Source of the DNA: Terrimicrobiaceae bacterium
Lineage (GTDB): Bacteria; Verrucomicrobiota; Verrucomicrobiia; Chthoniobacterales; Terrimicrobiaceae
NCBI GenBank assembly: GCA_044340205.1
Contig: JBIIUB010000002.1
Location: 7,125 to 71,124 of the forward strand
Direction of reading: 5' to 3'
DNA: 64,000 nucleotides
A program made the translations under genes and the position numbers. This document shows, piece after piece, positions 7,409 through 32,538 of this stretch; the stretch's first letter is position 1; the number at the start of each line of letters is the position of its first letter. Below the pieces are notes generated by a model that was not told the origin of the DNA, did not search any database, and was given only the letters and a program-made list of their open reading frames with translations.

Positions 7409-9049
7409 ATGATTCGGAGTTCTCACACCATCCGCTTCAGACGCCTGATCCTTCACTTGGTATTGGGAGTCTCTGTCGCCCTGTCCGGCCGCCTGGCCGC
7501 GCAGGACGCGAATCATTTGCTCGATGAGGAGCCGCCGCCAGTCGTGGATCCCGAGCCTCCGCAGACCTTTTCCATCCGCGAATTCCGCGTGGTCGGCGCC
7601 AAGACACTTCCAACCGGAGCGGTGGATAAGGCACTCTACAGCCACACCGGGCCGGGCCGCACGCCGGAGGATGTGGAAAACGCCCGCGCCTCGCTGGAGA
7701 AGGCCTACCACGACGAAGGCTACCAGACCGTTTCCGTCTCTGTGCCGCCCCAAGGGGTGAATACCGGCGTCATTGTGTTGCAGGTCACCGAGGCAACCGT
7801 CGGCCGCCTGCGCGTGAAGGGTTCCCGCTTTTTCGACATCGAGAGGATCAAAAAGATGGCCCCAGCGCTCGCAGAGGGCACCGTGCCGAATTTCAACGAT
7901 GTGCAGCGCGACATCATCGCCCTCAACCAGACCGCCGACCTCCAAGTCACCCCCTCACTTGCCGTTGGAAAAACACCAGGAACTGTCGATGTGGAGCTGA
8001 CAGTGAAGGACAAATTCCCACTGCACGGCAGCGTGGAGCTGAACAACCGCTACAGCGCGAACACGACGCCCCTGCGGCTCGACGCCTCGGTGCGCTACGA
8101 CAATTTGTGGCAGATGGGCCACACGATCGGCGCAGGCTTCCAGATCGCCCCGCAGCGCCCGAGCGACGCCCTCATTTTTTCCGGTTACTACATTGCCCGC
8201 ACGCCATCCATCGACTGGGTCGCGCTCATGCTTCAAGCTACGCGCCAGAACAGCGAGGTCTCGACACTCGGCGGCACCGACTCGCTCGGAAACGGCGAAA
8301 TCTACGGCGGGCGCTTCCTTTTCAACCTCCCCGCAAAGACCGGGTTCTACCACTCGGCCAGTATGGGCATCGACTACAAGGATTTTGCTCAAGATCTCGT
8401 TGTGGGCAACCAAACGGTTTCCAGTCCCCTCACCTACTGGCCGTTCTCGATCAACTACAACGCCAACTCGATCGGCAAACACTACGAGACCGAGTTCGGT
8501 GCTGGCGTGACCTTCTCTTTCCGTGGAACAGGCACGCAGGAGGCGATTGATTTCGACAATCGTCGCTACAATGCAAATGCGAACTTTTTCTACCTGCGAG
8601 GCAATCTGGCCCACACGCAGAAACTGCCGTGGGACTTCCAACTCTTCGGCGAGGTGCAGGGTCAAGCGACGGCCAATCCCCTCGTGGACACCGAGCAATA
8701 CAGCCTCGGCGGGCAATCCACCGTGCGCGGTTACCTCGAGTCCGTTGTAACCGGCGACAACGCCATTGCCGGCACGCTGGAATTTCGCACACCGTCCCTT
8801 CTCGGTTGGCTCCCGAAGGGCAACGAGTGGCGCTTTTTCGTCTTTATCGATGCCGGCTATGCCGTGCTCAACGATCCGCTCCCTGAGCAGACCTCGACCT
8901 TCAACCTCTGGAGCTACGGCGTCGGCACCAGCATCCGCCTCGTGGACCATATCAATGGCGACTTCTTTATCGGTATCCCACAAGTCACCCAATCTCCCTC
9001 GGAAGCCTATCAACCGCTCTTCTCCTTCAGCATCTCCGCAGAACTTTAA
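7409..9049 (+). CDS. TpsB outer-membrane transporter (ShlB/FhaC/HecB family, POTRA + beta-barrel)
   Basis: 546 aa with a signal peptide. POTRA-like region: FSIREFRVVGAKTLPTGAVDKALYSHTGPGRTPEDVENARASLEKAYHDEGYQTV...GRLRVKGSRFF. The long C-terminal part has an alternating beta-strand pattern (GGQSTVRGY). Confidence 0.85.
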   Translation: MIRSSHTIRFRRLILHLVLGVSVALSGRLAAQDANHLLDEEPPPVVDPEPPQTFSIREFRVVGAKTLPTGAVDKALYSHTGPGRTPEDVENARASLEKAYHDEGYQTVSVSVPPQGVNTGVIVLQVTEATVGRLRVKGSRFFDIERIKKMAPALAEGTVPNFNDVQRDIIALNQTADLQVTPSLAVGKTPGTVDVELTVKDKFPLHGSVELNNRYSANTTPLRLDASVRYDNLWQMGHTIGAGFQIAPQRPSDALIFSGYYIARTPSIDWVALMLQATRQNSEVSTLGGTDSLGNGEIYGGRFLFNLPAKTGFYHSASMGIDYKDFAQDLVVGNQTVSSPLTYWPFSINYNANSIGKHYETEFGAGVTFSFRGTGTQEAIDFDNRRYNANANFFYLRGNLAHTQKLPWDFQLFGEVQGQATANPLVDTEQYSLGGQSTVRGYLESVVTGDNAIAGTLEFRTPSLLGWLPKGNEWRFFVFIDAGYAVLNDPLPEQTSTFNLWSYGVGTSIRLVDHINGDFFIGIPQVTQSPSEAYQPLFSFSISAEL

Positions 9050-9058
9050 CCGCAAGAT

Positions 9059-11014
9059 ATGAAAACAACCGCATTCATCCGAACAGCACTTCTCGCCGCC
9101 ACGGCCCTTGTTTCCGTCACAGCGAATTCCCACGCCTGGTGGAACAAAGACTGGACCGCCCGCCGACCCGTCACGATCGATACCACCAAGACCGGATTTG
9201 AAATCAGCGAACCAGTCGGCACCGCCACCATCCTCCTGCGCCTCCACCAAGGAAACTTCGATTTCTCCACCGCCAAAGAGGACGGCACCGACATCCGCTT
9301 CGTGACAGAGGATGACAAGACACCCCTCGAATCCCGCGTGGAAAAATGGGACGCCCTCATGAACGAAGGCTTCGTGTGGGTCAAAGTCCCCGACATCAAG
9401 CCCGGCGCACAAACCAAAATCTGGCTCTACAGCGGCAACCCTGAAATCACCGCTGAGGAAGCCGCAGACCCGCTCGCAGCGCACGATACCGACACCATCC
9501 TCGCCTACAACTTCACCGCAGCCACACCCAAGGACGCCACAAAAAACGCCAACAACGCCACCTCCGGCGGCACGCTTTCCGAGGGCGCTCTCATCGGCCC
9601 CGGCATGCGCCTCCTCGGCAACACAGCCACCAAGATTCCCGGCTCGGACACCCTCCGCGCCGATGCTGCCCAACCCTTCACTCTCTCGACATGGTTGAAA
9701 CAATCCACCCTCAACGAAAAAGGCGTCCTCTTTGATTGGGGTGATGACTCCGCCCGTTTCCAAGTCGTTTTCCAAGCAGGCGCGCCTGTTGTTACCATCA
9801 CCTCCGCTTCCGGCACTTCCAAATCAACACCCGCGGACCCCGTCGCACCCAATGTCTGGAAACACATCGCCGTGGTTTCTGACGGCTCAAGCACAAAACT
9901 CTTCGTCGACGGCAAGGAATACTCCTCCGTCGCCGCTGGTCTGCCAGCCATCGTTGGCGAAGCCACGCTCGGCGCAGATGCCGATGGCAAAAACGGCCTC
10001 GTCGGCGAGATCGACGAGTTCAGCCTCTCGAAAACCGCCCGCCCCGAAGGCTGGGTCCAACTCGCCTACACCGGCCAGGCCGGCAATGATGCCAGCACCA
10101 AGCTCGTCGCCCTCGGCGAAGGTGAAGGCGGGGCCAGCGCAGGCGGTCACGGCGGCGCCATGGAGCATGTCATGCTCTTCGGCGACATCGCCAAGAACAT
10201 GATGTTCGACGGCTGGATCGCCATCGGCGTCTGCGTGATCATGATGTTTGCAGGATGGACCGTTGCCTTCGTCAAATTTGTTAATCTCGATAAAATCAAA
10301 AAAGGAAACGCAGAGTTCCAGCGCCTCTGGAAGGATGTCGCCACCGACCTCACTGCGATGGATCTCGACAACCCTGAGTCCTCAAAAACCTTCGGCGGCA
10401 AGATCGGCAAAAAAGGCCTCACCCTCCTCGCCGATTCACCCCTCTACCACATTTACCATGTCGGATCGGAAGAAATCCGCCACCGCCTCGGCTTCGGAAA
10501 AAACAAGGGCCAAGGCCTCTCAGCCCGCTCGATCCAAGCCATCCGCGCCTCGTTGGATGCCGCCCTCGTGCATGAACAGCACCGCCTCGGCAACGGCCTC
10601 GTTTACCTCACCACCAGCATCGCCGGCGGCCCCTATGTCGGTCTGCTCGGAACGGTCGTGGGTGTTATGATCACCTTCGCCATCATCGCCAAATCCGGCG
10701 AGGTGGATGTGAACTCGATCGCTCCCGGTATCGCCAGTGCGCTCCTCGCCACGACTGTGGGTCTCCTCGTCGCGATCCCGGCGCTGTTCATGTATAGCTT
10801 CCTGAATACCAGCATCAAAAACACCGTTTCCGCGATGCAGGTCTTCATCGACGAGTTCGTCGCCAAGGTCGCCGAATTCTACCCCACCCCGGGAGATTCC
10901 GGCCTTACCGTCCCGATCCGCCAAATCCGCACCCCGGAGGAGGCCGCACGCATTGAGGAGACCAAGGGCGATGAGAACGCTGCCATCATGGACAACCTCA
11001 TCAAACACAAATAA
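9059..11014 (+). CDS. MotA/TolQ/ExbB proton-channel protein with an N-terminal periplasmic DUF2341-like + LamG/ConA-like extension
   Basis: 651 aa. It starts with a signal peptide, then WWNKDWTARRPVTIDT...DGTDIRFVTEDDKTPLESRVEKWD...VWVKVPDIKPG...IWLYSGNP (DUF2341-like). A LamG-like segment follows (FTLSTWLK...VWKHIAVVSDGSSTKLFVDGKEY...GEIDEFSLS). Three TM helices then carry the ExbB signature GGPYVGLLGTVVGVM...IAPGIASALLATTVGLLVAIPALF. Confidence 0.85.
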   Translation: MKTTAFIRTALLAATALVSVTANSHAWWNKDWTARRPVTIDTTKTGFEISEPVGTATILLRLHQGNFDFSTAKEDGTDIRFVTEDDKTPLESRVEKWDALMNEGFVWVKVPDIKPGAQTKIWLYSGNPEITAEEAADPLAAHDTDTILAYNFTAATPKDATKNANNATSGGTLSEGALIGPGMRLLGNTATKIPGSDTLRADAAQPFTLSTWLKQSTLNEKGVLFDWGDDSARFQVVFQAGAPVVTITSASGTSKSTPADPVAPNVWKHIAVVSDGSSTKLFVDGKEYSSVAAGLPAIVGEATLGADADGKNGLVGEIDEFSLSKTARPEGWVQLAYTGQAGNDASTKLVALGEGEGGASAGGHGGAMEHVMLFGDIAKNMMFDGWIAIGVCVIMMFAGWTVAFVKFVNLDKIKKGNAEFQRLWKDVATDLTAMDLDNPESSKTFGGKIGKKGLTLLADSPLYHIYHVGSEEIRHRLGFGKNKGQGLSARSIQAIRASLDAALVHEQHRLGNGLVYLTTSIAGGPYVGLLGTVVGVMITFAIIAKSGEVDVNSIAPGIASALLATTVGLLVAIPALFMYSFLNTSIKNTVSAMQVFIDEFVAKVAEFYPTPGDSGLTVPIRQIRTPEEAARIEETKGDENAAIMDNLIKHK

Positions 11015-11020
11015 CCCACC

Positions 11021-11419
11021 ATGGACGCTGGCGACGACAAATCCTACGACGACATCAATGTGACCCCGATGGTAGACCTCTACCTCGTGCTTTTGCTGAT
11101 TTTTATCATCATGACCACAGCCGGAGTCCAGGGCGTGAAAATCGATCTCCCGAAAGGCAGCAAAGCCCCGGCTCTCGGCGGACCCAAGGGAAAATCCATC
11201 ACCATTAACAACGAGGGCAAACTCTTCCTCGACACCGTGCCGGTGACCATCGCCGAACTCGAAGCCAAGCTCAGCGAGCATAAATCCAAGGTGCCCGAGT
11301 TCCCCGTCGTTGTCCGTGGCGACCGCGCCACGCAATACATGATGGTCATGGAAGTCCTCGATGTGCTGGGACGCCTCGACATCAAGCAAATCGGCCTCGC
11401 CACCCAGGCGCCCAAGTAA
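11021..11419 (+). CDS. exbD: ExbD/TolR biopolymer transport protein
   Basis: 132 aa. INVTPMVDLYLVLLLIFII, followed by a periplasmic domain, is typical of ExbD. Confidence 0.9.
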   Translation: MDAGDDKSYDDINVTPMVDLYLVLLLIFIIMTTAGVQGVKIDLPKGSKAPALGGPKGKSITINNEGKLFLDTVPVTIAELEAKLSEHKSKVPEFPVVVRGDRATQYMMVMEVLDVLGRLDIKQIGLATQAPK

Positions 11420-11428
11420 CCCAAAACC

Positions 11429-12121
11429 ATGCCCGACGAAGAAGAAGACGAGCCAAGTTTCTTTGCGAAGCACAAAATCAAGATCATCCTTGGTGGCGTT
11501 CTCATCGTCGCGTTGGGCGTTTATTTCATGGGCGCACCGAAATCCGCCCCAAAGAAAAAATCCTCCGGCCCCGTCATGATTTCCCTGCCCCCGCCGCCGC
11601 CACCACCTCCCCCGCCGCCACCACCTCCGCCACCCAAGGAGCAACCACCCGAGCCCGAAACAGTGAAAGAGGAAAAATTCACACCCGAGGAGGCTCCCGA
11701 GCCCGAACCCCAAGCCGCACCCGAACCCGCCCCCATGGGCACGAACCTCGAGGGCAACGGCCCCGACGCCTTCGGCCTCGCCAAGGGCGGAGGCAGCGGC
11801 ATGATTGGAGGCACCGGCACAGGAAAAGGCGGCAAGGGCTCGAAATTCGGCGGCTATGCCTCCCAAGTGCAAGGCTCCATCGTCCAAGCCCTCCGCAATC
11901 ACAAAAAAACCAAATCCGCCGCACTCAATGTCACCGCCCGCATCTGGCTCGACGCCACCGGTCGCGTGACCCGCGCCACCATCTCTGGTTCCTCAGGCGA
12001 CCCCGCCACCGACGCCGCCCTCCGCAACGAAATTCTCACCGGTCTGCAAATGCAGGCTCCCCCACCGGAAGGCATGCCGATGCCCATCGTCATGCGACTC
12101 AAAGCCACTCGACCCAACTGA
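11429..12121 (+). CDS. TonB-like energy transducer with a poly-proline spacer
   Basis: 230 aa. It has an N-terminal TM helix, an uninterrupted proline run, a PEPE-rich spacer and a C-terminal TonB_C-like segment (NVTARIWLDATGRVTRATISGSSGDPATDAALRNEI). Confidence 0.75.
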   Translation: MPDEEEDEPSFFAKHKIKIILGGVLIVALGVYFMGAPKSAPKKKSSGPVMISLPPPPPPPPPPPPPPPPKEQPPEPETVKEEKFTPEEAPEPEPQAAPEPAPMGTNLEGNGPDAFGLAKGGGSGMIGGTGTGKGGKGSKFGGYASQVQGSIVQALRNHKKTKSAALNVTARIWLDATGRVTRATISGSSGDPATDAALRNEILTGLQMQAPPPEGMPMPIVMRLKATRPN

Positions 12122-12125
12122 TCCC

Positions 12126-14195: not shown

Positions 14196-14201
14196 CGCCA
14201 C

Positions 14202-14837
14202 ATGAAAATCAAAACCTACGCCCTCTTGGCCGCAGCCGCCGTCCTCCTCTCGCCGCTCCTCCGCGCCGCCGAGGAAGACCCCACCGCAAAGTTCCGCGAA
14301 GCCCTCAAAGACACCATGCTCAAGCTCCGCGCCGCCCAAACCGACCTCGCCAACGCCCAAGCCGCCCAGTATGCCGCCGAGGCCAAGGCGACCGAACTCA
14401 CCGCGAAAACCGAGTCCCTCAACAAGGAACTCGCCAACGAGCGCAACACCTCCACCAACATGATCGCCGATCTCAATAAAAAGATCGCCGACCGCGACGG
14501 CTCGATCGTCGAACTCAACGCCGCCCTCGCCAAATGGAAAAAATCCTACGGCGAAGTCGCCAAACTCGCCTCGAAACGCGAAGGCCAACGCGCCCAACTC
14601 GACACCAAACGCATCGAACTCGAACGCAAAGTCCAAGAGGAACAACAAAAAAACATCGAAATGTATCAAGCCGGCATGGAAATCCTCGACCGCTACGAAA
14701 AATTCGGCCTCGGCGACGCCATCCTCGCCCGCGAACCCTTCACCGCCGCCCAACGCGTCAAATTCCAAAACCTCGTCCAAGACCTCTCCGACAAACTCAC
14801 CGACGCCCGCATCCCCGCCGACGCCCCAAAGAAATAA
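14202..14837 (+). CDS. Secreted coiled-coil protein (hypothetical)
   Basis: 211 aa with a signal peptide (LLRAAEED). The rest is long heptad-like, K/E/A/L-rich sequence. Codon usage matches the neighbouring genes. Confidence 0.6.
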   Translation: MKIKTYALLAAAAVLLSPLLRAAEEDPTAKFREALKDTMLKLRAAQTDLANAQAAQYAAEAKATELTAKTESLNKELANERNTSTNMIADLNKKIADRDGSIVELNAALAKWKKSYGEVAKLASKREGQRAQLDTKRIELERKVQEEQQKNIEMYQAGMEILDRYEKFGLGDAILAREPFTAAQRVKFQNLVQDLSDKLTDARIPADAPKK

Positions 14838-14838
14838 T

Positions 14839-14881: not shown

Positions 14882-14895
14882 AAAACTCACCCACC

Positions 14896-15771: not shown

Positions 15772-15779
15772 CCCCGCAA

Positions 15780-15796
15780 GTTACAAAATCGTCACA
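15780..15796 (+). promoter_or_regulatory. GTNACA-N5-GTNACA motif, copy 3 (GTTACAaaatcGTCACA), about 135 bp upstream of the tpsA ATG
   Basis: Read directly. 12 of 16 positions match the E. coli Pho-box core GTCATAAAACTGTCAC when aligned without gaps. Confidence 0.4.
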
Positions 15797-24900: not shown

Positions 24901-27613
24901 GACAGGCAAGTTTGGCGCGATCCAATTCCAAGACAGCAACGGCGAAACGATCGTGGACTCCTCCGCTTCCACCGCTTGGTGGATCGATTACAGCAACTTC
25001 TTCCAAGGCTTCGGAACACTTGGTGGCGGTGACATCGCGCTTGTTGCGAAAAACGACATCGTCAATGCCGATGCCGTCTCCCCCACCAATGCCCGCATGG
25101 CGGGAATTGGCGGTGAGGAAAACCTTGCAGCGGACCTTGCTAATCTCGTCGAGTTTGGCGGTGGCGATTTGAAGATCGAAGCGGGAAGGAATATTGATGG
25201 TGGTCTCTACTACGCAGAGCGTGGGCAAGGCATCTTGCAAGCCGGCGGCAAGGTGAAGACGAATGCGGCCCGCTCTCCCTCACTGGGACTATTGGGAGCA
25301 CTCGGTGCCTATAGCGAGTCTTTATTAACCAGCACCGAGCCGGAAATTTTCCTGCCAGAAACCTGGCTGCCCACGGCTCTCTTTGTTGGCAAAGGGTCGT
25401 TCGAGGTTTCCGCCAAACAAGACATCCTGCTCGGCCCAATCGCCAACGCCTTCCTCATGCCGACCGGTTTGGGAAACAAGTTCTGGTATAAATCCTATTT
25501 CAGCACCTTCTCGCCAGAATCCACAGTGGATGTGAAGTCGCTCGGCGGCGATGTCACCTTCCGTTCAGCCACTATCCTGCCCTTGGAGTTCGGGGCAAAG
25601 CCGATCCTCACCTCTTGGATCCAGCAGCAGAACCTCTTCAATGTCGAAGGCGCAGATATTTATTCTTCAAATTCCCAGCCTTGGACACGACTCTCGGAAT
25701 CCACGCTTGAGGGCTTCGGCAGTGTGATGAATCTGATTCCTCCGACGCTCAAAGTTGGTGCCTTCGCTGGAAGTGTGAACACGGTTGGGTCTGTAATCCT
25801 TGCACCTGCCTCGCGTGGAAATCTTGAAATCGTCGCGGCGGAAGCGGTCAATGGCCTTCAACCTGCAGGCAAAACGGAGTTTCAGGACGAAGCGGGCAAT
25901 CTCTACTCTCTCATGGGGTGGATTTCCTCGACCATCAACCTCTCGGACGCCAATCCCGCCGCAATACCGGGAACAACCGCTCCTCTCAGCTACTACGGAT
26001 ATGCCGGTGAATCGGGTGTGCTTTACGAGTCCTCTGCAAACTTCCTCGCAAACATCGACAAAGCCCTTGGCGAAACCGGCTCCTATGCTGGCAACGATGC
26101 GGCTATCGATCTGAAGAGGCTTCGACATGGAGACTCGCTACTCCATGCGGGCGACACCGAACCCGTCCGAGTTTACACCGGCAACGGCGATATCTCCGGT
26201 CTCGCCCTCTTCGCACCCAAGTTTTCAAGGATCACAAGCGGAGGATCAATCTCAGATGTGGCATTTTATCTCCAGAATCTTAATGCCAAGGACATCTCGA
26301 TTGTCTCGGCAACAGGAGACATTATTCCCTACAATGAAGCTGCGACACTTCGCACCGAGGCATCGAACATTCTCGCAGGGAATGTCGTTCTCGATGCACC
26401 ACGCATCACGGCGAATAACAAAGCTGTGACTGCGCTTGCCGGCGACATCCAGATTTCAGGCCCGGGATTCCTCGAGGTCTTGGCCGGTGTAAACCTCGAT
26501 CTCGGCACCGGAGAAAATCTGGCCGATGGCACCGGCACGGGCATAGTAAGCATCGGCAATTCCCGCAATCCCAACCTGCCATTTGAAGGTGCCTCGATTA
26601 TTGCGCTGGCTGGCATAGGTGCAGCGGAAGGTGGTCCGGCCCTCGGGCTCAAAGGTAGCAATTTGGTTTTTGAAAATCTCGAAGCCATAGCCCCATCTGG
26701 CTCTCTTGTGGAAACACTCTCTGAAGATCCCGAACACATCGCGATCGCTGGTTTGCAAACCCTCTTTTCCATCATTGCTGCCACGGGCGAGGCGTATCCC
26801 GAAACTTCCAGTTACGAGCCCGCTTTGGAGGCTGTAGAGACTGTCTTTGCGCGCCTTGATGGCCCAGGAGACATCTTCACCCGCTCGCGTGATATCCGAA
26901 CTGTCAGCGGCGGATCCGTTGCCCTGGCTGCTCCACGCGGCGGGCTCACCATGGCCTCCGACATCTTTGGAAATCCTCTGACTCCTCCAGGCGTAGTCAC
27001 CGAGTTCGGCGGCGGAGTTTCCATTCTCACAGATGGCGATGTGGATATCGGTCGAGCCCGTATCTTCACGCTTCGCGGAGGCGACATGACGATCTGGTCC
27101 ACGACGGGCGACATCGCTGCAGGAACCTCGCCCAAGACTGTCGTTACCGCGCCGCCCACTCGTGTCGTCATCGACTCGCCCAGCGCGGATGTAAAAACCG
27201 ACCTCGGTGGCCTTGCAACCGGTGGCGGCATCGGCGTGCTCGCCGCTGTCGAGGATGTCGAACCAGGCAATGTCTATCTCCTCGCTCCAAAGGGAACCGT
27301 GGATGCCGGAGATGCCGGTATCCAAAGCACAGGCAATCTGAACATCGCTGCTGTTTCTGTAATTAATGCCGATAATATTTCCACTGGCGGAACCTCTGCG
27401 GGAGTTCCCTCCTCCGCACCTGCAGCAGCCGCTCCGATTTCTGTCTCGCCATCCGCTTCGAGCAGCACTGCAGCTTCGTCCTCTGCGGCACAGAGCATGG
27501 CCAATCAAGCCCAGCCACACCCCGAGACAACCGAGGAGCAGCCATCGCTGATCACAGTGGAAGTCCTCGGCTACGGCGGAGGTGATGCCGAGGAAGAGAA
27601 AGAGGAAGGATAG
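15932..27613 (+). CDS. Giant TpsA exoprotein (filamentous-haemagglutinin-type beta-helical adhesin), 3893 aa
   Basis: The TPS secretion domain reads ALLHWETFNVGSQTTVNFDQ...GKITSQGQVYILNQNGIIFGAGSQVNARTLVASALPI. Thousands of residues of G/S/N/I-rich beta-helix-like repeats follow. A conserved-looking C-terminal module is GDMTIWSTTGDIAAGTSPKT...GTVDAGDAGIQSTGNLNIAA. The protein ends in an acidic tail, GGGDAEEEKEEG. Confidence 0.9.
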   Translation: MLKTGHRTKYHLRAFEFLAARRRSRAVLTCTLLASFLATMPTGGLQAGDILRGGASAGNAKRNSEARANAGAAAAKVRAQDRLARTTKAVNDMRALQASARAAAGANTIPNGLTEGGLKVLTGANAKWEGANAPIASGNTVGITQTASQALLHWETFNVGSQTTVNFDQSAGGADSGKWIAFNKVFDPTAKPSEIRGKITSQGQVYILNQNGIIFGAGSQVNARTLVASALPINDNLVKNGLLNNKDAQFLFSALEVPGGSDGTPTFTPTDVPEVLGDIILERGAKISSPELAGGNGGRVMLIGANVRNKGEISTPAGQTILAAGLQVGVREHNNSDPSLRGLDVWVGAVDLDGVNPYAGQVQNSGIIESPTGSIVVAGKRIDQNGVLESTTSVNLNGRIDLLANYGAVANPNFDNSGTLGDGAPMFINQFTGNIVMGPQSITRILPDYASTKSVPGTRLPQNSQINFQGNSISFSAGSTLLAPSGDVGIRSGTWSYKDDESLNRTIFNADGEIEETLQSALRTPFIFTQGTVNFSSGAILDVSGTPDVFVPLSHRVMDVQLRGNELADSPLQRDSDLRGKNLRIDLRKTGVYGGRFWMGTPLGDANGLANIIERNAAQLTTRGGTVSIQAGESVAVASGAELNVSGGYTRNEGGLIQTTRLLRNGSLINIADATPDIIYDGILTGSSQKVSAKWGNPKTYRHALAPMGAYSEKEYIAGESGGSIDITAPTVRISGELSGRTVTGLKQLNTPAGHSSLALRFRNQKPVETPTGTVYLDQISAPPALVLGTGSGVGIPGLKMGQTLTIPSSILEEEEGFGHVTLENKGGTIQVAGEPVQMAAGGSLTLQATNVSILSSVLIPGGSLSATAYNYSPFLYAEQTATEVLVGQPAPKVVERTGIILIGSGVELNVAGTISDDRPTSALAHNSRRAIDGGSVKLEGFSIFAGSETAVRASGGVAMNGRGKYTKGKGGSISLLAGKDPLLSTSVGGTLGLPSILEAYSSSTGGSLTLQAMRARLGATTDRGGTTLDLSPGFFQKGGFSNFSIRAIGQPGSDEPALYVLPGTTIEPITESVVVRPHVLNSGLGLVKMQLPEGIRSAAGLSLTALGVDDPFTDEEVEAIGSIVLGAGAKIKTDIGGAVSLKGQTVSVFGSIETPAGSISIEGGSRFPLAAQQAASSTSALTTVYIAPTARLLARGATREIPDSFGRKMGEVLGGGSIRLAGNIVAESGAVLDVSGISNELDIHPSSLNTAHRPSPRHGLVTKPWGQQSVRVGVDSNGGTIRLLGSQLLLSDATLLGKSGGSTAVGGLLVVSSDAFNLQSGADITLSVQQSGNLIGSENTNLGVGSSVLDSEGSKITGGGFFAIDRFKSGGFAALDLGYEYFASATIPHGGNVKFIGPLNIQADGYVRVASGGIVQTDDQVSISAPYIAIGQEFRPPLHPSETFSPFNDANGKLSVTPTTGPGSLSLRASHVDVGTLVTMDTGSLHITANNGDIRGSGTLSVAGSITLESAQVYPTTLGKFDIFAYDTEGSPGSVTITQSGLAGVPLSAGGNLRIFASNISQGGTLRAPFGSITLGWDGSDLNTATEDIEGPVNQVAGLETATPVSSEINLLAGSTTSVSAIDPATGQGVVIPFGISPDGNIWVDPRGVNVTSSGMPEKTIAISGQGINQEAGSIIDLRGGGDLMAYRWVSGTGGSVDILGSPVAWNSGTDYSAGDLVSHNGRQYSARMALSPRDFNGSVPTPGRTAYWVEVPESFAVIPGFKSPLAPYAHFNSSDYASSLGGDNGYTSSLKIGDKITLDGGYGLPAGSYTLLPRRYALLPGARLVTPTSSKSAGFVNAEGAAHASGYRSNFFTKPDQATPIRSSYEILSPEVLANRAEYAVYSANDFIPKAATSARLNVNQALPMDSGSLSIHGASSLSLLGHVETASAGGIGAAIDISSFEITIGNYNPFAPSEVFLYASVLNSWKAESLLIGGQRSKNALGTILNVKTDSLLLHGAVLEGGDIILAAKNGLRISDGASIQSKNPSSVQRDLTTQGSSAYVRVDSNKLSMINRIGAVDENAASLIIGDNVSLSGASISMDSSRRASISEAVAINSSRISIGSGSLLLDLGGTALGDADTLRLGTSVLNQLSQADSISLKAYSSFTIAGSGTLGSENLANLSLESSGILGKGGNVVIKAKNLLLSNPNSVAAPAETSSAGQISFQSNHLRLGKGDFTVAGYNLAQFEASKGTIIANSGALLGSGELNLLTPTIASTRLSDYLIESDGALNINSSKGAGDVASELGAKLSLVGSSVIIGSRISLPSGELNIRAKSGDVTINSALSVAGSSRTFYDVVKFADAGGIRITSDRGNILLAEGSSLSVKGDNAGGRAGTLEIAASAGSFINQGTLLGQAATGFEGGSFILDVGTTGDFAEINTPLEEGGFNNLRNLRIRSGDVLLDQKVTSREFRLSTDGGDITVSAEIDASGKTGSTISLEASGSITLAESALLSVEGENFNSAGKGGLVELFTGSQINGVIDTSARLSIQSDSQILFGVNDYVSGGYLDAGSSASLGKFQGRLHLRAPRSDGNTDLLIDPLAGTIEGASAIIVEGYRLFDRTTQDGVMNIALRDAIHTDAQAFMTNESAIQSRLLGGSTDNLSAHTVVAPGFEIINTAGDLTLGLANREGTDNIEGKSAADWDLSAMRYGSKNAPGLLTLRASGDIVFNNSLSDGFVSVQPGAEDPSIYTNNLSFEENGHSRLWLAQLQTINSNLPTNFQSWSYTITAGSDLASANTKSILSRDLLEEGKGSVLVGEFYPAVANANNPDTNPDAPQVDAGVGQYGTTANHLRINLTETDEGTYDEEGNVITEGTGLLKDMGTRYEIVRTGTGDIEVNAGRHVQLRNQFATIYTAGVAIPDATRVIADGDFSTPIVAFDPTSHPEQGSMGRPSQAFTPQWAMAGGDLRIFAGNDIARVTQFTDSEGKISIIPDSSHQFTSNWLYRRGHVDTTTGKFGAIQFQDSNGETIVDSSASTAWWIDYSNFFQGFGTLGGGDIALVAKNDIVNADAVSPTNARMAGIGGEENLAADLANLVEFGGGDLKIEAGRNIDGGLYYAERGQGILQAGGKVKTNAARSPSLGLLGALGAYSESLLTSTEPEIFLPETWLPTALFVGKGSFEVSAKQDILLGPIANAFLMPTGLGNKFWYKSYFSTFSPESTVDVKSLGGDVTFRSATILPLEFGAKPILTSWIQQQNLFNVEGADIYSSNSQPWTRLSESTLEGFGSVMNLIPPTLKVGAFAGSVNTVGSVILAPASRGNLEIVAAEAVNGLQPAGKTEFQDEAGNLYSLMGWISSTINLSDANPAAIPGTTAPLSYYGYAGESGVLYESSANFLANIDKALGETGSYAGNDAAIDLKRLRHGDSLLHAGDTEPVRVYTGNGDISGLALFAPKFSRITSGGSISDVAFYLQNLNAKDISIVSATGDIIPYNEAATLRTEASNILAGNVVLDAPRITANNKAVTALAGDIQISGPGFLEVLAGVNLDLGTGENLADGTGTGIVSIGNSRNPNLPFEGASIIALAGIGAAEGGPALGLKGSNLVFENLEAIAPSGSLVETLSEDPEHIAIAGLQTLFSIIAATGEAYPETSSYEPALEAVETVFARLDGPGDIFTRSRDIRTVSGGSVALAAPRGGLTMASDIFGNPLTPPGVVTEFGGGVSILTDGDVDIGRARIFTLRGGDMTIWSTTGDIAAGTSPKTVVTAPPTRVVIDSPSADVKTDLGGLATGGGIGVLAAVEDVEPGNVYLLAPKGTVDAGDAGIQSTGNLNIAAVSVINADNISTGGTSAGVPSSAPAAAAPISVSPSASSSTAASSSAAQSMANQAQPHPETTEEQPSLITVEVLGYGGGDAEEEKEEG

Positions 27614-27674
27614 CTCCTTTCAGCTCCCAGACTCGCTTTGAAGGCGGATTGGCGTCCGAGAGCAAAGCGGTAAT

Positions 27675-27691
27675 GTAACGAAATCGTCACA
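27675..27691 (+). promoter_or_regulatory. GTNACA-N5-GTNACA motif, copy 4 (GTAACGaaatcGTCACA), about 110 bp upstream of the PstS-like gene
   Basis: Read directly. It is embedded in the larger near-palindrome ggtaatgt...acattaacc. Confidence 0.4.
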
Positions 27692-27799
27692 TTAACCCCC
27701 TCGCTCTTTTTTGCGGAGTGAACATTTTCTTGATCACCACGCTACCAATCACTGGTGAGTGGAAATTCAAAACTAAAATACATTAGCGACAGAAATCAC

Positions 27800-29023
27800 A
27801 TGAAAACAAAATCACTACTCATAGCTGCGGCCGCCCTCGGGCTTGGCCTCTCCGCCCAGGCTCAAACCACAACCGTCGACATCGTCGGAGCCACAGCGTT
27901 CCGCTCTGCGGCTCATACTTCCATCATGGCCTCCTACACAACGCTCGATGGTTACGCCCACTCTGGTGCCGCTACAAAAGCTGGCAGTGCCTCTCGAGCC
28001 ACCTACAAAGGAACATTTCCCGGCATCACAGGCACAACTGTTATTCGCGTAAGCTGGACAGGTTCTGTGGAAGGCGTTCGCTCATTGGCCAGCTCCAAAG
28101 CCACACCCGACACCTTTATTCCAATTTCATCTGTCACGACTGGAGAAACTCACTCGGTCAATGCGACTGTGACCGGTTCCAGAACGGCTGTCATGGCCTT
28201 CTCTGATGTGGCCCAAGCCAACACTCCCTACAAGACACCGGCTCTCAAGGGCGGCCCGGTCGGAGTGATCGCTTTTGCTCCTGTCATTAACAAAGGTGCT
28301 GAAGCGGAGATCACAAATATCACCGGCCTTCAGTTCCGCCGCCTTCTCTCCAACGGAACAATTCCGGAATCGATGCTCACCGGCAACACAACCTCCAACG
28401 GAATGATATATGTAACAGGAAGAAATGATGGTTCAGGAACGCGAGTTGCCTTCTTATCGGAGGTCGGTCATGGAGCGGCCAACCCTGTGAAACAATATGT
28501 GATCAATGCACCTGCCAGCACCACAAATCTGGCGACTCCCGTATTAGCACCAATCATTGCCAATTCGACAACCTACCCGGGTTATGTTCTTTCAACTGAT
28601 TTTGCGAAGAAAGCGGAAATCGGAAACGGTGGTTACCAGAGCGGTGGAACAATCGCCAATTGGATGAAGCTTCCTTCTTCCGGAGACTTTAACATCATTA
28701 GCTGGTTGGGCACATCCGATGCAATTACCGCCCGTGATTCTGGCAATGGTGGGCGCGTGCTTTCCTACAATGGCGAAAAATTGGAAGGTGTTGCAGCTGG
28801 ATCTTTCTCCGAAGCCGATCGTAACAAGATTCGCCTTGGGAAATACTCTGCTTGGAATTTTGAAAATCTTTTCACCAAAGGCACCTTAACAGGAAATAAT
28901 AAAATTGTTTACGACAAACTCGTATCAACTATTCCTTCCAATCTGGGATCTTCCGGTGTCGCGAATGATTCTTCCTTCAAAGTGACCCGCACGACAGATG
29001 GAAGCGTAATTGCTCCAAAATAA
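27800..29023 (+). CDS. Secreted PstS-like (PBP_like_2 / phosphate-binding-protein fold) protein, orphan
   Basis: I prefer the ATG at 27800 (MKTKSLLIAAAALGLGLSAQAQ signal peptide) over the GTG at 27755. VDIVGATAFR...VSWTGSVEGV...AFSDV...GRNDGSGTRVAF resembles type-II periplasmic phosphate-binding proteins. No pstCAB genes are nearby. Confidence 0.55.
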   Translation: MKTKSLLIAAAALGLGLSAQAQTTTVDIVGATAFRSAAHTSIMASYTTLDGYAHSGAATKAGSASRATYKGTFPGITGTTVIRVSWTGSVEGVRSLASSKATPDTFIPISSVTTGETHSVNATVTGSRTAVMAFSDVAQANTPYKTPALKGGPVGVIAFAPVINKGAEAEITNITGLQFRRLLSNGTIPESMLTGNTTSNGMIYVTGRNDGSGTRVAFLSEVGHGAANPVKQYVINAPASTTNLATPVLAPIIANSTTYPGYVLSTDFAKKAEIGNGGYQSGGTIANWMKLPSSGDFNIISWLGTSDAITARDSGNGGRVLSYNGEKLEGVAAGSFSEADRNKIRLGKYSAWNFENLFTKGTLTGNNKIVYDKLVSTIPSNLGSSGVANDSSFKVTRTTDGSVIAPK

Positions 29024-32537: not shown

Positions 32538-32538
32538 G

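Follow-up and report, generated by a model that had tools for sequence, protein, structure and literature searches.

The PdtA/PdtB locus of Pseudomonas aeruginosa (reference genes pdtA, pdtB, exbB2, exbD2, tonB4, PA0696, PA0697, and PA0699) is a known phosphate (Pi) starvation regulon of PUMA3/sigma-VreI and PhoB; PhoB-bound pho boxes are present at PpdtA and PphdA, and the PdtA, PA0696, and PA0698 proteins are induced by Pi starvation. The association of two-partner secretion (TPS) with ExbBD and PA0696 was reported for several Proteobacteria in 2009, and the literature searched still calls the Ton and accessory genes uncharacterised, in agreement with a first-pass annotation of the present DNA, whose PA0690-PA0699 gene set is also correct. 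Canonical TPS systems (FhaB/FhaC, ShlA/ShlB, HMW1; type Vb) share with the locus described here a POTRA-bearing TpsB of the Omp85 type and a TpsA whose TPS domain is N-terminal, but they comprise two genes and are considered energy-independent, whereas here a stator/TonB-like module, a further barrel, and periplasmic proteins are tied to the TPS genes.

Gene layout and comparison with the PdtAB locus

The locus lies within a 64,000-nucleotide stretch of DNA (the window) from a free-living freshwater lake Verrucomicrobium of the Terrimicrobiaceae. The ORF check recovered all nine genes previously listed for 7409-29023, on the + strand (Table 1). The gaps from tpsB to the coiled-coil gene measure 9, 6, 9, 4, and 6 bp and are followed by gaps of 58, 160, and 186 bp; no convincing terminator was found when 7000-16100 was scanned on the + strand, and the strong terminator annotated earlier does follow the last gene directly. 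The separate, ordinary exbB-exbD-tonB operon was likewise located at 31497-33726 on the - strand.

Table 1. Features of the cluster and its downstream neighbours (window coordinates)
Feature	Position	Strand	Size	Basis or remark
Distal Pho-box-like element upstream of tpsB, GTTACAAATTCGTAACA	7157..7173	.		Motif search
Proximal Pho-box-like element, GTGACAGGATCGTAACA	7344..7360	.		Motif search; 65 bp before tpsB ATG
tpsB, PdtB-type Omp85 transporter	7409..9049	+	546 aa	Pfam POTRA_2, ShlB
exbB-like stator subunit with N-terminal periplasmic DUF2341-LamG module	9059..11014	+	651 aa	Pfam DUF2341, Laminin_G_3, MotA_ExbB
exbD-like stator subunit	11021..11419	+	132 aa	Pfam ExbD
TonB/TolA-like force transducer	11429..12121	+	230 aa	N-terminal TM helix, Pro16 run, Gly-rich linker, TonB_2 C-terminal domain
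Porin_5 outer-membrane barrel	12126..14195	+	689 aa	PF16930, 580 bits
Secreted coiled-coil protein, PA0697-type	14202..14837	+	211 aa	Signal peptide; no real Pfam family
Periplasmic PpiC-type PPIase/chaperone, PA0699-type	14896..15771	+	291 aa	Rotamase_2, Rotamase_3, Rotamase; signal peptide
Pho-box-like element upstream of tpsA, GTTACAAAATCGTCACA	15780..15796	.		Motif search
tpsA, PdtA-type giant exoprotein	15932..27613	+	3893 aa	TPS domain, DUF3739
Pho-box-like element upstream of PstS-like gene, GTAACGAAATCGTCACA	27675..27691	.		Motif search
Divergent PstS-like binding protein	27800..29023	+	407 aa from ATG 27800	Signal peptide; profile and structure matches
Intrinsic terminator	29046..29074	+	13-bp stem	8 GC pairs, T-run; directly 3' of PstS-like gene
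Membrane-anchored protein	29162..29686	+	174 aa	N-terminal TM helix; conserved neighbour of PstS-like gene
Sel1-repeat protein	29702..30541	-		Pfam Sel1; conserved neighbour
Pho-box-like element ~50 bp upstream of Sel1 gene, GTTACAGTTTCGTAACA	30591..30607	.		Motif search

The cluster was compared with relatives of the P. aeruginosa locus in Pseudomonas, on Klebsiella/Serratia plasmids, and in Achromobacter and Methylosinus, and the proposed correspondence was borne out component by component. TpsB is 45% (Methylosinus) and 37% (Klebsiella) identical to the TpsB of the same cluster over its full length, the TonB-like protein 37% and 30%, and the PPIase 38% and 31%, while the coiled-coil protein has a homolog in the "hypothetical" encoded at the corresponding place (E 3e-23 and 6e-20, respectively). 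Since all eight components are full-length homologous to proteobacterial loci with PAO1 gene order, and the order of those loci matches the published PAO1 map, the locus is very probably the verrucomicrobial version of the PdtAB-type locus. Both types share the order TpsB, DUF2341-LamG-ExbB, ExbD, TonB-like, Porin_5, coiled-coil protein, and PpiC PPIase, a giant TpsA that contains DUF3739 and, at its C-terminus, an ITVEVLGYG-type motif, a gene of the PstS family next to tpsA, and separate promotion of tpsA and the tpsB operon with a Pho-box-type element each. Unlike in P. aeruginosa, the YbjN-type gene (PA0698), phdA/DUF772, LysR, the VreA/VreI/VreR ECF module, and Hxc type II are absent from the window as well as from all 80 verrucomicrobial loci, Porin_5 has an extra Pro-rich linker, and the PstS-like protein is not of the DING/LapA type but a member of a divergent family that Pfam does not match. 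A virulence-restricted role is unlikely because the organism is free-living in a lake. The earlier claim of a new machine was overstated in view of the 2009 report. New here are the invariant order, the element, the 16-strand Porin_5 model, the passenger swap, and the C-terminal TpsA motif; the occurrence across phyla means that the machine is widespread, and a locus type that was known but unexplained is extended to another phylum.

Conservation of the cluster and its motor

The order TpsB-ExbB-ExbD-TonB-Porin_5-coiled-coil-(PPIase)-TpsA does not vary among 80 Verrucomicrobiota loci, whose identities reach down to ~41-45%, and recurs in Alpha-, Beta-, and Gammaproteobacteria, so that the synteny expected beyond this genome does exist. 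TpsB was found in each Verrucomicrobiota locus whose contig extends far enough, the coiled-coil gene in 77 of the 80, and the PPIase gene in 59, being missing from some complete loci; TpsB and the coiled-coil protein thus belong to the invariant core, and the PstS-like gene does not.

The ExbB fusion carries a signal peptide, a periplasmic DUF2341-LamG domain of ~350 aa, and three TM helices (380-410, 520-547, and 553-582), and the same fusion is present in Pseudomonas, Achromobacter, and Verrucomicrobia loci. Its T532, T565, and GLLGTVxGM motif, as well as the TM Asp of ExbD (D19), are at least 95% conserved (n = 69 sequences for D19). A three-TM stator subunit with conserved Thr, an ExbD/TolR subunit with TM Asp, and a transducer in which a Pro-rich spacer links an N-terminal TM helix to a TonB_2 C-terminal domain are common to ExbB-ExbD-TonB and TolQ-TolR-TolA, in contrast to which the ExbB of the window bears DUF2341-LamG and the cluster lacks a TonB-dependent receptor, TolB, and Pal. 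BLAST detected no similarity between the TonB-like protein and the housekeeping TonB of the window, and by sequence the cluster motor is a paralog separate from that Ton system. In Aquabacterium, the DUF2341-exbB gene directly adjoins tpsA.

It could be argued that these are co-regulated Pho genes travelling together without physical coupling, the Ton-like module serving unlinked TonB-dependent receptors elsewhere in the genome; the P. aeruginosa cluster indeed sits amid Pho/VreI regulon genes of mixed function (hxc, lapA). This is highly improbable, given an order that stays invariant, at gaps of 4-9 bp, in two or more phyla (down to ~30-45% identity), a complete motor in each copy where genomes hold two clusters, the DUF2341-LamG fusion in every cluster version examined for it, a housekeeping Ton system encoded separately in the same window, and no TonB-dependent receptor gene in any of the annotated loci inspected.

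The giant exoprotein, the barrel, and the putative target of the motor

TpsA consists of a signal peptide, a conserved extension of ~100 aa (GDILRGG and a helix), the TPS domain (TIGR01901, aa 153-231; phmmer matches to the TPS domains of EtpA/HxuA/HMW1), a variable beta-helical passenger with a CBM_5_12 motif, DUF3739 (aa 3716-3826), a Ser/Ala-rich linker, and the motif ITVEVLGYG (DNA 27551-27577). The extension and the C-terminal motif distinguish it from canonical TPS exoproteins. A TonB-box-like motif of this type is present at the C-terminus of every TpsA compared, and when 3.09 million six-frame residues were searched for [ILV][ST]V[ED][ILV]L[GS][YFL]G, 9/9 matches lay 11-50 aa before the stop of giant TpsA ORFs from Verrucomicrobia and Alpha-, Beta-, and Gammaproteobacteria, with none outside TpsA C-termini. 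The passenger has been exchanged by recombination, with the breakpoint just past the TPS domain: the export module (signal peptide, GDILRGG, helix, and TPS) co-evolves with the operon while passengers are swapped between lineages, and the apparatus therefore appears indifferent to its passenger.

The protein annotated as porin-like is a Porin_5 member by Pfam, arranged as signal peptide, Pro-rich linker, conserved periplasmic helical region, and a barrel ending in NSKF, which the AlphaFold (AF2) model shows as 16 long strands without a plug, preceded by N-terminal helices. As modelled, this porin fold rules out a conventional TonB-dependent transporter. Foldseek placed OmpM1 closest, with OprB, MOMP, DcaP, and OmpF among the top matches, while a sequence search of the PDB returned no relative. 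OmpM1 (Veillonella) and DcaP (Acinetobacter) also carry an N-terminal periplasmic extension, so that a 16-strand porin-type barrel following a periplasmic helical region would be common to all three; unlike them, the Porin_5 protein has no sequence similarity to solved proteins and no SLH domain, its gene is always inside the TPS/motor operon, and its helical region begins with a motif kept across phyla, (S/N)(V/A)T(I/V)NLI..LVK.G.LT. Both this motif and ITVEVLGYG are, by resemblance, putative TonB boxes; for Porin_5 the model counts against this reading, as the motif is predicted, with modest confidence, to be a helix rather than a strand. In Methylomagnum, the Porin_5 gene stands beside tpsB, a binding-protein gene, and phoU, without adjacent motor, hence Porin_5 may have a motor-independent, phosphate-related role.

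Our tentative main reading, to which we give a probability of about 0.4, is that the target of the motor is the TPS substrate or apparatus. The proteins would form a single envelope-spanning apparatus, in which a dedicated proton-driven ExbB/ExbD-type stator, bearing the periplasmic DUF2341-LamG module, would drive the TonB/TolA-like transducer, whose C-terminal domain might dock onto short beta-strand-type motifs, the candidates being ITVEVLGYG of TpsA and/or (V/A)T(I/V)NLI, with which the periplasmic region of Porin_5 begins. The motor could thereby control a periplasmic or outer-membrane step (export, retention/anchoring, or release) for the 3900-aa exoprotein passing TpsB, with the PPIase and coiled-coil protein as periplasmic chaperone or scaffold, and the exported TpsA and the PstS-like protein might serve phosphorus scavenging or surface interactions in Pi starvation. 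The tight 4-9 bp gaps, the lack of an internal terminator, the conserved motor residues, and the separate paralog support one apparatus. Action on the TPS substrate is favoured over nutrient uptake because the ITVEVLGYG-type motif is confined to giant TpsA C-termini, the export module follows the operon while the passenger is swapped, periplasmic chaperone-type genes are predicted to be co-transcribed, the barrel is predicted to be a plugless porin, and tpsA adjoins DUF2341-exbB in Aquabacterium. Against it, characterised Ton systems mostly power import, and the Porin_5 gene of Methylomagnum has no motor beside it. In addition, TPS secretion is regarded as energy-independent, type V systems having been reconstituted, according to a review, in liposomes without energy input, and in P. 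aeruginosa transposon mutants of tonB4 and PA0696 left VreI-induced virulence unchanged (zebrafish readout).

The same proteins could instead build a Tol-Pal-like or Agl-Glt-like trans-envelope link of stator, TonB/TolA-like protein, coiled-coil protein, and helix-bearing porin, which would drive neither secretion nor uptake but stabilise or remodel the outer membrane in Pi starvation, or send force to a surface-anchored TpsA filament (adhesion, movement). In NCBIfam, where the motor proteins score below the cutoffs of all equivalog models, ExbB and ExbD come nearer to TolQ/TolR than to the ExbB/ExbD models, and the TonB-like protein also matches TolA and, weakly, GltJ. The periplasmic coiled-coil protein is an invariant member, the PDB title of OmpM1 reads "outer membrane attachment porin" and DcaP is among the matches, and novel motor-driven force transducers have been reported in Verrucomicrobia and Proteobacteria. 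We nevertheless consider such a tether unlikely, as Pfam and NCBIfam searches of the cluster revealed no homolog of TolB, Pal, CpoB, or Glt, neither Porin_5 nor the coiled-coil protein showed a peptidoglycan-binding domain in domain searches, and a tether would leave the strict linkage to tpsB, the PPIase, and the Pho control unexplained.

Probable phosphate control and the PstS-like protein

The Pho-box-like sites noted earlier are non-random: six distinct matches to GTNAC-N6-GTNACA occur in the window against 0.14 expected, and four of them fall in the three promoter-type gaps of the cluster. Of the 38 Verrucomicrobiota loci with a tpsB-upstream site, most keep the proximal one at a distance of 65-125 bp from the gene; the closest relatives have an equivalent of the distal one ~280 bp ahead of tpsB, and ten tpsA-upstream sites were counted in related loci. 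Relatives also carry the element before canonical pstS, PBP_like_2, alkaline phosphatase (phoA-type), metallophosphoesterase, and PhoB-type regulator genes, and because of the pstS, phoA-type, and phoB-type genes among these it is, by association, probably a Pho box. The predicted elements of the window parallel the PhoB-bound boxes at PpdtA and PphdA of P. aeruginosa. With an element before each, the genes probably form three Pho-controlled transcription units, namely tpsB to the PPIase gene, tpsA, and the PstS-like gene.

The ORF of the PstS-like protein (422 aa) opens at GTG 27755, the ATG in Table 1 being the likely start. It has no match in Pfam or NCBIfam even at E ≤ 10, with Pfam PBP_like_2 missing it, yet the earlier assignment holds: a profile of 30 homologs matches solved PstS proteins (4ecf, 5e-9; 4exl, 3e-7), and the top 19 Foldseek PDB matches of the AF2 model (pLDDT 89.6) are all PstS. 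It shares with PstS, DING, and LapA the Venus-flytrap fold and the phosphate-binding motifs T-x-F, G-S, D, and R-x-D-G-S-G-T, which are invariant in its family (P422) as G-A-T-A-F, G-S, D136, and R208-x-D-G-S-G-T, but it is ~150 residues longer than solved PstS proteins and 10-15% identical to them, and pstCAB genes are not adjacent. Like psp and lapA, its gene lies beside a giant TpsA; P422 homologs with as little as 43% identity are still found next to DUF3739-type TpsA genes, and PstS-family genes adjoin giant TpsA in Verrucomicrobia, Methylosinus, and Pseudomonas (psp, lapA, lapB). The phosphate link first suggested for the locus is thus upheld by the element, by this gene, and by the Pi induction demonstrated experimentally in Pseudomonas.

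These data also suit the main rival, a phosphorus-uptake apparatus, which is possible and nearly as plausible as motor-energised TPS secretion. TpsA would be displayed or released as a scavenger, with TpsB merely exporting it, the PstS-like protein would capture phosphate or a phosphorylated ligand, and the channel for import would be Porin_5, whose periplasmic N-terminal region would let the TonB-like protein gate or energise it. Pi-starvation control (shown in Pseudomonas, predicted here), PstS-family genes next to giant TpsA, the invariant phosphate-binding residues, the Methylomagnum arrangement, and the importing role of most characterised Ton systems agree with it. HxuABC of Haemophilus influenzae offers a precedent, being a TPS exoprotein (HxuA, a haem scavenger) encoded alongside a Ton-dependent outer-membrane component for nutrient acquisition in starvation. 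However, HxuC is a TonB-dependent transporter of the classical type, with 22 strands and a plug, and uses the general TonB of the cell, whereas the cluster encodes its own ExbB, ExbD, and TonB and a barrel modelled as a 16-strand general porin; no TonB-gated porin or importer with such an unplugged fold is known. Uptake also leaves the C-terminal TpsA motif unexplained, the PstS-like gene lies outside the invariant core that holds TpsB and the coiled-coil protein, and the exchange of passengers while porin and motor stay fits poorly with a specific ligand hand-over.

Downstream, the gene of the 174-aa protein also follows the P422 homolog in locus L005, and a relative in L057 has a Pho-box-like element upstream. 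The Sel1 gene of the window probably belongs to the same regulon. A Sel1 gene accompanies the P422 homolog in L004, L005, and L007, and one is preceded by the element in L065; in L004 and L005, the site equivalent to 30591 has the Sel1 gene on one side and a canonical PBP_like_2 (PstS) gene on the other.

Gene content and layout of the cluster

The nine plus-strand ORFs that the first-pass annotation had listed for the cluster were all present exactly as described, and domains were assigned to their products by Pfam, NCBIfam and PDB searches (see the table of features). TpsB is an Omp85-family barrel with ShlB-type POTRA domains (PF03865 ShlB, 8e-17; PF08479 POTRA_2, 5.5e-12). Between tpsB and the coiled-coil gene, neighbouring genes are separated by 9, 6, 9, 4, and 6 bp, and further on by 58, 160, and 186 bp; no credible plus-strand terminator was found within the tpsB-PPIase stretch, and the strong one claimed past the last gene is indeed there, with a 13-bp stem. 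By sequence inspection, ExbB combines three canonical transmembrane helices with a signal peptide that is cleavable and a DUF2341-LamG module of ~350 aa in the periplasm, ExbD and the TonB-like protein (which includes a 16-proline run) have a single N-terminal transmembrane helix each, and the coiled-coil protein (CC211) and the PPIase are exported.

Features of the cluster and of other parts of the window (window coordinates)
Feature	Position	Strand	Size or residues	Assignment or sequence
Cluster, tpsB to P422	7409-29023	+	nine genes
ExbB fusion		+	651 aa	DUF2341-Laminin_G_3-MotA/ExbB (Pfam)
ExbD		+		ExbD family
TonB-like protein		+	230 aa	TonB_2 C-terminal domain
Porin_5		+	689 aa	PF16930, 580 bits
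Porin_5 extra segment and Pro-rich linker	12195-12485	+	aa 24-120	verrucomicrobial proteins
CC211		+	211 aa	signal peptide and coiled coil, without family
PPIase		+		PpiC-type
TpsA		+	3893 aa	TIGR01901 TPS domain, EtpA/HxuA/HMW1-like N-terminus, CBM_5_12 motif, C-terminal DUF3739
TpsA mature N-terminus and helix	16070-16310	+	aa 47-125	(A/S)GDILRGG, then helix
TpsA recombination breakpoint	16600-16950		aa ~225-340	just past TPS domain
TpsA terminal motif	27551-27577	+	aa 3874-3882	ITVEVLGYG
P422	likely start ATG 27800	+	422 aa	last in cluster, size for whole ORF; without Pfam/NCBIfam family
Terminator	29046-29074		13-bp stem
Sel1-repeat gene	29702-30541			Pho-box-like element ~50 bp upstream (fifth site)
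Pho-box-like elements	before tpsB			GTTACAaattcGTAACA and GTGACAggatcGTAACA
Pho-box-like element	before tpsA			GTTACAaaatcGTCACA
Pho-box-like element	before P422			GTAACGaaatcGTCACA
Pho-box-like element, sixth site	40284-40300	-		GTTACAAAAATGTCACA
Glycosyltransferase-like stretch	30740-31020	+		C-terminal part
Inverted repeat	31194-31322		26-bp arms	CTAGGGGTCAGTGTTCATTTTCTTTC ... GAAAGAAAATGAACACTGACCCCTAG
Housekeeping exbB-exbD-tonB operon	31497-33726	-	247, 145, and 346 aa
FecR-domain ORF	52145-52930
Low-GC island	52000-64000	-		45-48% GC

The GC content is 59-61% in the operon and falls to 53-56% in tpsA and to 48% around P422. The genes flanking the cluster are housekeeping ones (monomeric IDH upstream; ProC, DD-carboxypeptidase, UvrD, and LeuS downstream). 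An exact-sequence look-up of the window Porin_5 returned no record; its closest relatives are labelled Verrucomicrobiota or Terrimicrobiaceae, and a genome scan recovered copies 95% and 92% identical in Terrimicrobiaceae MAGs from lake metagenomes. These relatives and the housekeeping flanks indicate that the cluster is chromosomal, in a free-living freshwater Verrucomicrobium.

At least 95% conservation in 66-69 sequences was found for ExbD D19, ExbB T532 and T565, and a GLLGTVxGM motif; the cluster motor is under purifying selection as a working stator. As in Ton systems, this stator has conserved proton-pathway residues and is accompanied by a TonB-type transducer; no TonB-dependent receptor (22-strand, plugged, with a TonB box) was found in the cluster or in the annotated loci inspected. 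A Tol-Pal- or Glt-like module, serving as a tether or transmitting force, would share the stator and transducer and is an improbable reading: genes for TolB, Pal, and CpoB are absent from the cluster, and the TolQ/TolR models score 107/89.5 bits, under their NCBIfam cutoffs of 221/127. The second, ordinary Ton operon reported earlier does exist, 2.5 kb beyond the cluster. Its TonB has a very long spacer rich in Pro, Thr, and Ser, its ExbB and ExbD share 30-35% identity with the cluster copies, and similarity between the two TonB proteins is undetectable; on these alignments it is a paralog distinct from the cluster motor.

A core shared with the PdtAB-type loci of Proteobacteria

The gene set that the first-pass annotation gave for Pseudomonas aeruginosa PA0690-PA0699 (the pdt locus) agrees with the published PAO1 map: PA0690 pdtA, PA0691 phdA, PA0692 pdtB, PA0693 exbB2, PA0694 exbD2, PA0695 tonB4, PA0696 ("putative outer membrane porin"), PA0697, PA0698 (YbjN family), and PA0699 (PpiC PPIase). 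In this strain, phdA-pdtB-exbB2D2-tonB4-PA0696-PA0701 form a single operon and pdtA is under its own promoter, both promoters having a pho box bound by PhoB and requiring sigma-VreI. The proteins with the strongest induction under Pi limitation include PdtA, PA0696, and PA0698, and secretion of PdtA that depends on PdtB has been reported for P. aeruginosa only. The joint occurrence of TPS, ExbBD, and PA0696 homologs was noted as early as 2009 in Pseudomonas, Burkholderia, Rhodopseudomonas, and Janthinobacterium.

Gene order was compared using this map together with annotated loci of Klebsiella, Methylosinus, P. brassicacearum, and Achromobacter, and the cluster order (tpsB-exbB-exbD-tonB-Porin_5-PA0697-type-PpiC PPIase) matches that of the PdtAB-type class, named after pdtA/pdtB. 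A Klebsiella quasipneumoniae plasmid encodes TpsA-TpsB-ExbB(612 aa)-ExbD-TonB-porin-hyp-YbjN-PPIase-hyp-LysR, a Methylosinus plasmid locus has the same order preceded by a VreA/ECF/FecR-like trio, and the DUF2341-LamG-ExbB fusion (Pfam) also occurs in the chromosomal loci of P. brassicacearum and Achromobacter. All eight window proteins align full-length with their Methylosinus and Klebsiella counterparts, with identities (Methylosinus/Klebsiella) of 45%/37% for TpsB, 43%/34% for ExbB, 60%/46% for ExbD, 37%/30% for TonB, 39%/36% for Porin_5, 38%/31% for the PPIase, and 29%/30% for the coiled-coil protein (E 3e-23/6e-20); TpsA is 28% identical to its counterpart over 2674 aa. A giant TpsA with a C-terminal DUF3739 (PF12545, 1e-29) and a terminal ITVEVLGYG-type motif is a further feature that the window shares with the PdtAB-type loci.

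The differences concern regulators and accessories. The LysR gene of the Klebsiella locus is absent from the window, and the YbjN-family gene (PA0698) had no tblastn match in the window and none in the 80 loci from Verrucomicrobiota, which suggests that it is a proteobacterial accessory outside the core. In the same window and loci, no homologs of ECF sigma, FecR, or STN (VreA/VreI/VreR type) adjoin the cluster, and this evidence points to YbjN and VreAIR as lineage-specific additions. Verrucomicrobial matches to the query "Msin_STN" were rejected as STN since they are cross-hits to the TonB C-terminal domain, and the FecR-domain ORF of the window lies 23 kb from the cluster in an unrelated context.

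Scanning a genome collection with a cross-phylum Porin_5 alignment yielded 126 relatives, the best 80 of which were mapped with the window proteins, while proteobacterial context was taken from plasmid/chromid records and contig look-ups. Synteny beyond this genome was thereby confirmed, with one order across 80 Verrucomicrobiota loci and Proteobacteria. The best 80 of the 126 come from Verrucomicrobiota only (Terrimicrobiaceae, other Chthoniobacterales, Verrucomicrobiales, and Opitutae) and keep the order TpsB-ExbB-ExbD-TonB-Porin5-CC211-(PPIase)-TpsA everywhere, with Porin5 present in all 80, CC211 in 77, TonB in 70, ExbD in 61, ExbB and PPIase in 59 each, TpsB in 52, and TpsA in 49. Contig ends account for nearly all absences, and TpsB was found in every one of these loci with at least ~5 kb upstream of the porin; the PPIase is missing from some complete loci, and tpsA is divergent from tpsB or non-adjacent in some. 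Several genomes have two full copies, each with its own motor (locus pairs L070/L073, L076/L079, and L078/L086). On this gene content, the second phylum has an invariant core composed of TpsB, DUF2341-ExbB, ExbD, the TonB-like protein, Porin_5, and the coiled-coil protein.

In Proteobacteria the Porin_5 family has more than 2136 matches, spanning Serratia, Sodalis, Brenneria, Halopseudomonas, Alcanivorax, Achromobacter, and many Pseudomonas. Distant members include natural variants of the module. An Aquabacterium olei plasmid (L091) is arranged TpsA-DUF2341/ExbB-ExbD-ExbD-TonB-porin-hyp, with no tpsB between tpsA and exbB, and on a Methylomagnum ishizawai plasmid (L093) Porin_5 sits beside tpsB, a binding-protein gene, and phoU, the motor not being adjacent. 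Cluster copies of verrucomicrobial type, 41-49% identical to the window, were also seen in MAG contigs labelled "uncultured Enterobacteriaceae" or "Akkermansia muciniphila/Akkermansia sp." (L072, L078, L084, and L086); the Enterobacteriaceae label on such a contig looks like a binning or labelling error.

Pho-box-like elements and the PstS-like protein

Hexamer repeats with an 11-bp period are a hallmark of PhoB/PhoP boxes, such as CTGTCAT-N4-CTGTCAT in E. coli or the TT(A/T/C)ACA-N5 repeats of B. subtilis. All three promoter-type gaps of the cluster have two GTnAC cores 11 bp apart (GTnAC-N6-GTnAC), and the Pho-box-like sites proposed in the first-pass annotation were borne out by six distinct sites in 64 kb vs. 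0.14 expected. The sixth falls at the 3' end of an ORF for a xylose-isomerase-like TIM barrel and precedes a 132-aa ORF by ~60 bp; no phosphate-related or interpretable neighbour was identified there. The tpsB operon and tpsA have separate boxed promoters, as in P. aeruginosa.

Within 80 related loci, 71 distinct element sites were counted in 1.21 Mb, 38 of them at most 500 bp upstream of tpsB (mostly 65-125 bp) and 10 upstream of tpsA. The element, enriched in the window, is in relatives common to pstS, phoA-type, and phoB-type genes: in L004 and L005 it separates a Sel1 gene from a canonical PBP_like_2 (PstS) gene, L032 has it ~30 bp upstream of a textbook PstS N-terminus, and L040 upstream of a kinase whose domains include a PstS-like one. 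In L090 it precedes a metallophosphoesterase gene and a choice-of-anchor-I gene and also occurs in the promoter from which an AraC gene and a PF00245 alkaline phosphatase gene diverge. In a Verrucomicrobiia MAG (L035), an OmpR/PhoB-type response-regulator gene (3509-4189, minus strand), directly upstream of and divergent from tpsB, is flanked by elements at 3373 and 4397, and its product is a candidate cognate regulator. Given the PhoB/PhoP-type repeat and the association with phosphate genes, the element is probably the Pho box of these Verrucomicrobia. Genes for PEP-CTERM-type or related secreted proteins adjoin P422, TpsA, or Sel1 genes behind an element (L006, 9085-9951; L065, 13183-14487) and may be further regulon members.

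The last gene had been described as PstS-like. Pfam and NCBIfam searches with P422, P174 (a 174-aa membrane-anchored neighbour), and the coiled-coil protein gave nothing meaningful, only coiled-coil noise, P422 had no Pfam or PBP_like_2 match at E ≤ 10, and a single-sequence PDB search with it returned no match. The description nevertheless held, as a 30-sequence profile matches solved PstS proteins and the fold agrees: PstS proteins occupy the first 19 places among the PDB matches of the AF2 model (pLDDT 89.6), at TM-scores up to 0.80 (target-normalised). The family comprises more than 861 proteins without a Pfam domain, and its invariant columns (G-A-T-A-F, G-S, D136, and R208-x-D-G-S-G-T) appear to be the PstS phosphate-binding motifs, with likely counterparts of E. 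coli PstS T10, F11, S38, D56, R135, and S139-T141 by motif alignment. P422 shares with PstS proteins the type II periplasmic binding fold and predicted phosphate-coordinating residues, whereas no pstCAB genes are adjacent to it; it represents a new PstS-like family. Homologs down to 43% identity adjoin DUF3739-type TpsA genes, and in L006 one lies between two such genes. A PBP_like_2 protein is encoded beside TpsA in Methylosinus, with gspD nearby, and in Pseudomonas a Pho-regulated DING/PstS-like psp is located directly upstream of a 4083-aa haemagglutinin-domain ORF, LapA and LapB being DING-like.

A fusion, gene order, and short motifs fixed across free-living Verrucomicrobiota and three proteobacterial classes, a motor of its own kept in each copy, and a Pho-type element ahead of the module in a second phylum argue that the cluster genes constitute one selected machine, neither a Pseudomonas curiosity nor a virulence island. 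Mere co-regulation, set against this conservation, is highly improbable.

TpsA, the Porin_5 barrel and a possible role of the motor

The TPS domain of TpsA scores 64 bits against TIGR01901 (cutoff 29), its N-terminus has phmmer matches to the TPS domains of EtpA, HxuA, and HMW1, and the L004 homolog carries PF05860. A conserved extension of ~100 aa precedes this domain; its mature N-terminus and helix are conserved across Verrucomicrobiota, the helix being recognisable in Methylosinus too. Breakpoints were examined by comparing loci L009, L010, L011, L013, and L059 with L015, L017, and L004. Where the operon DNA is 91-94% identical, only the first 200-250 aa of TpsA are shared (84-96%) and the passenger beyond is 30-50% identical; in L015 and L017 the operon proteins are 66-81% identical, yet the passenger is 90-98% identical to that of the window, and L004 and L005 match window positions 17819-30478 (TpsA, P422, P174, and Sel1) at 87% DNA identity. 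This mismatch, the breakpoint at ~16.6-16.9 kb, and the GC step indicate that TpsA is a mosaic whose export module evolves in step with TpsB and the motor, while the passenger is exchanged.

DUF3739 is conserved across phyla and is followed by a variable Ser/Ala-rich linker and a nearly invariant terminal motif outside the Pfam model, in the forms PS(L/I)ITVEVLGYGG (Verrucomicrobia and Methylosinus), STISVEILGYG (Klebsiella), and GILTVELLSLG (Aquabacterium). Among 3.09 million six-frame residues, all nine matches to [ILV][ST]V[ED][ILV]L[GS][YFL]G were at TpsA C-termini, 11-50 aa before the stop; the motif spans Verrucomicrobia and Alpha-, Beta-, and Gammaproteobacteria, being present, besides the window, in L001, L002, L004-L007, L028, and L091. 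TonB boxes have sequences such as ETVIVEG or DTITVTA, and the terminal motif (hydrophobic-T-hydrophobic-x-hydrophobic-hydrophobic) resembles both these and the N-terminal motif of Porin_5.

No sequence relatives of Porin_5 were found among solved structures. Its AF2 model (mean pLDDT 62, pulled down by linkers; strands 80-95) has three helices (119-133, 139-171, and 201-227) followed by 16 long strands, and the best structural matches are OmpM1 (whose structure entry is titled outer membrane attachment porin), OprB, MOMP, chitoporin, DcaP, and OmpF-type porins; the model is that of a porin fold with periplasmic helices. The conserved periplasmic region opens with (S/N)(V/A)T(I/V)NLI..LVK.G.LT, kept across phyla, and T124, N126, L127, I128, L131, V132, G135, and L137 are at least 90% conserved in 45 sequences. 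This motif directly follows the signal peptide in proteobacterial proteins, while in verrucomicrobial ones a short extra N-terminal segment and a Pro-rich linker precede it; the segment (D-Y-x-V-S/A-Q...K-N-K/R-I-V-F-D-Y, at the mature N-terminus) is conserved in Verrucomicrobia, and both it and the linker are missing from the proteobacterial proteins aligned.

Some candidate assignments were discarded or downgraded. A plugged 22-strand TonB-dependent transporter is incompatible with the 16 strands, porin fold, and absent plug of Porin_5; (V/A)T(I/V)NLI, modelled as a helix (pLDDT ~64-75), was kept only as a candidate for a classical TonB-box strand; and a conserved TonB box or H1 plug at the TpsB N-terminus was dropped, the pre-POTRA1 region being short here and of varying length between phyla, with no conserved motif seen.

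The conserved, co-transcribed set spans the inner membrane (stator and transducer), the periplasm (LamG module, coiled-coil protein, and PPIase), and the outer membrane (TpsB and Porin_5), and is joined by an exported giant TpsA and the PstS-like protein; we infer that these envelope proteins act as one apparatus. In the reading we favour, to which we give a probability of about 0.4, the TonB/TolA-like transducer would dock on the C-terminal motif of TpsA and/or the periplasmic region of Porin_5, placing the export, retention, or release of TpsA via TpsB under the control of the proton-motive force. It is favoured by the terminal motif conserved across phyla, by co-evolution of the operon with the export module and not with the passenger, by the motor belonging to each copy, by the co-transcribed chaperone-type genes, and by a barrel that is not transporter-like. 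Against it, secretion by TPS systems is considered to need no energy source, type V systems function in liposomes to which no energy is supplied, and virulence was unchanged in P. aeruginosa tonB4 and PA0696 mutants; the TonB-box-like readings of both motifs rest on resemblance. The main rival, which we consider rather unlikely, is a phosphorus-uptake device in which TpsA and the PstS-like protein would supply Porin_5, acting as a Ton-gated channel; the pervasive phosphate context, the HxuABC precedent, and the porin-phoU arrangement of Methylomagnum speak for it, and the plugless porin fold fits it poorly.

Motor control of TpsA could hold for the PdtAB-type class as a whole, with stator and TonB-like transducer gripping ITVEVLGYG and/or the Porin_5 N-terminal region and the proton-motive force driving, arresting, or reversing the passage of a 3900-aa beta-helical TpsA through TpsB; this generalisation is doubtful. 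If true, type Vb secretion would not always be energy-independent, contrary to the dogma that the outer membrane offers type V systems no energy source, and this would be the first type V system coupled to a motor, one that Proteobacteria and Verrucomicrobia both conserve and use under phosphate starvation. The first-pass claim of an uncharacterised machine stands in part: it has been known since 2009 that exbB2-exbD2-tonB4-PA0696-PA0699 of P. aeruginosa are strongly Pi-induced and are expressed in infection, and no function for the Ton and accessory genes, Porin_5, or DUF3739 was found in the literature searched; earlier publications already describe the locus type itself, how it responds to Pi, and its conservation within Proteobacteria. 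New are the second phylum with an invariant core, the evidence that YbjN and VreAIR are lineage-specific, a probable verrucomicrobial Pho box, the PstS-like family, the Porin_5 fold, and the swapping of TpsA passengers. An ecological role in phosphorus-limited lakes is also suggested. The two cross-phylum motifs make what the motor touches directly testable, the experimental handles being the C-terminal ITVEVLGYG, the Porin_5 N-terminal motif, the ExbD Asp, and the new PstS-like family.

Elsewhere in the window, the gap before the housekeeping tonB contains a perfect 26-bp inverted repeat with a 77-bp AT-rich spacer, possibly a small mobile element or else a hairpin with a regulatory role. The short in-frame glycosyltransferase-like stretch, whose N-terminal part is absent, is probably a gene remnant; the equivalent position in L004 is occupied by a PstS (PBP_like_2) gene. 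The low-GC island is probably a locus for glycosylation or the cell surface that was acquired by horizontal transfer; besides an 1828-aa multi-domain protein with two group-1 glycosyltransferase regions, TPR repeats, and GT41, it encodes a methyltransferase, a DegT-type aminotransferase, and a FecR-domain protein and has glycoside-hydrolase-like ORFs.
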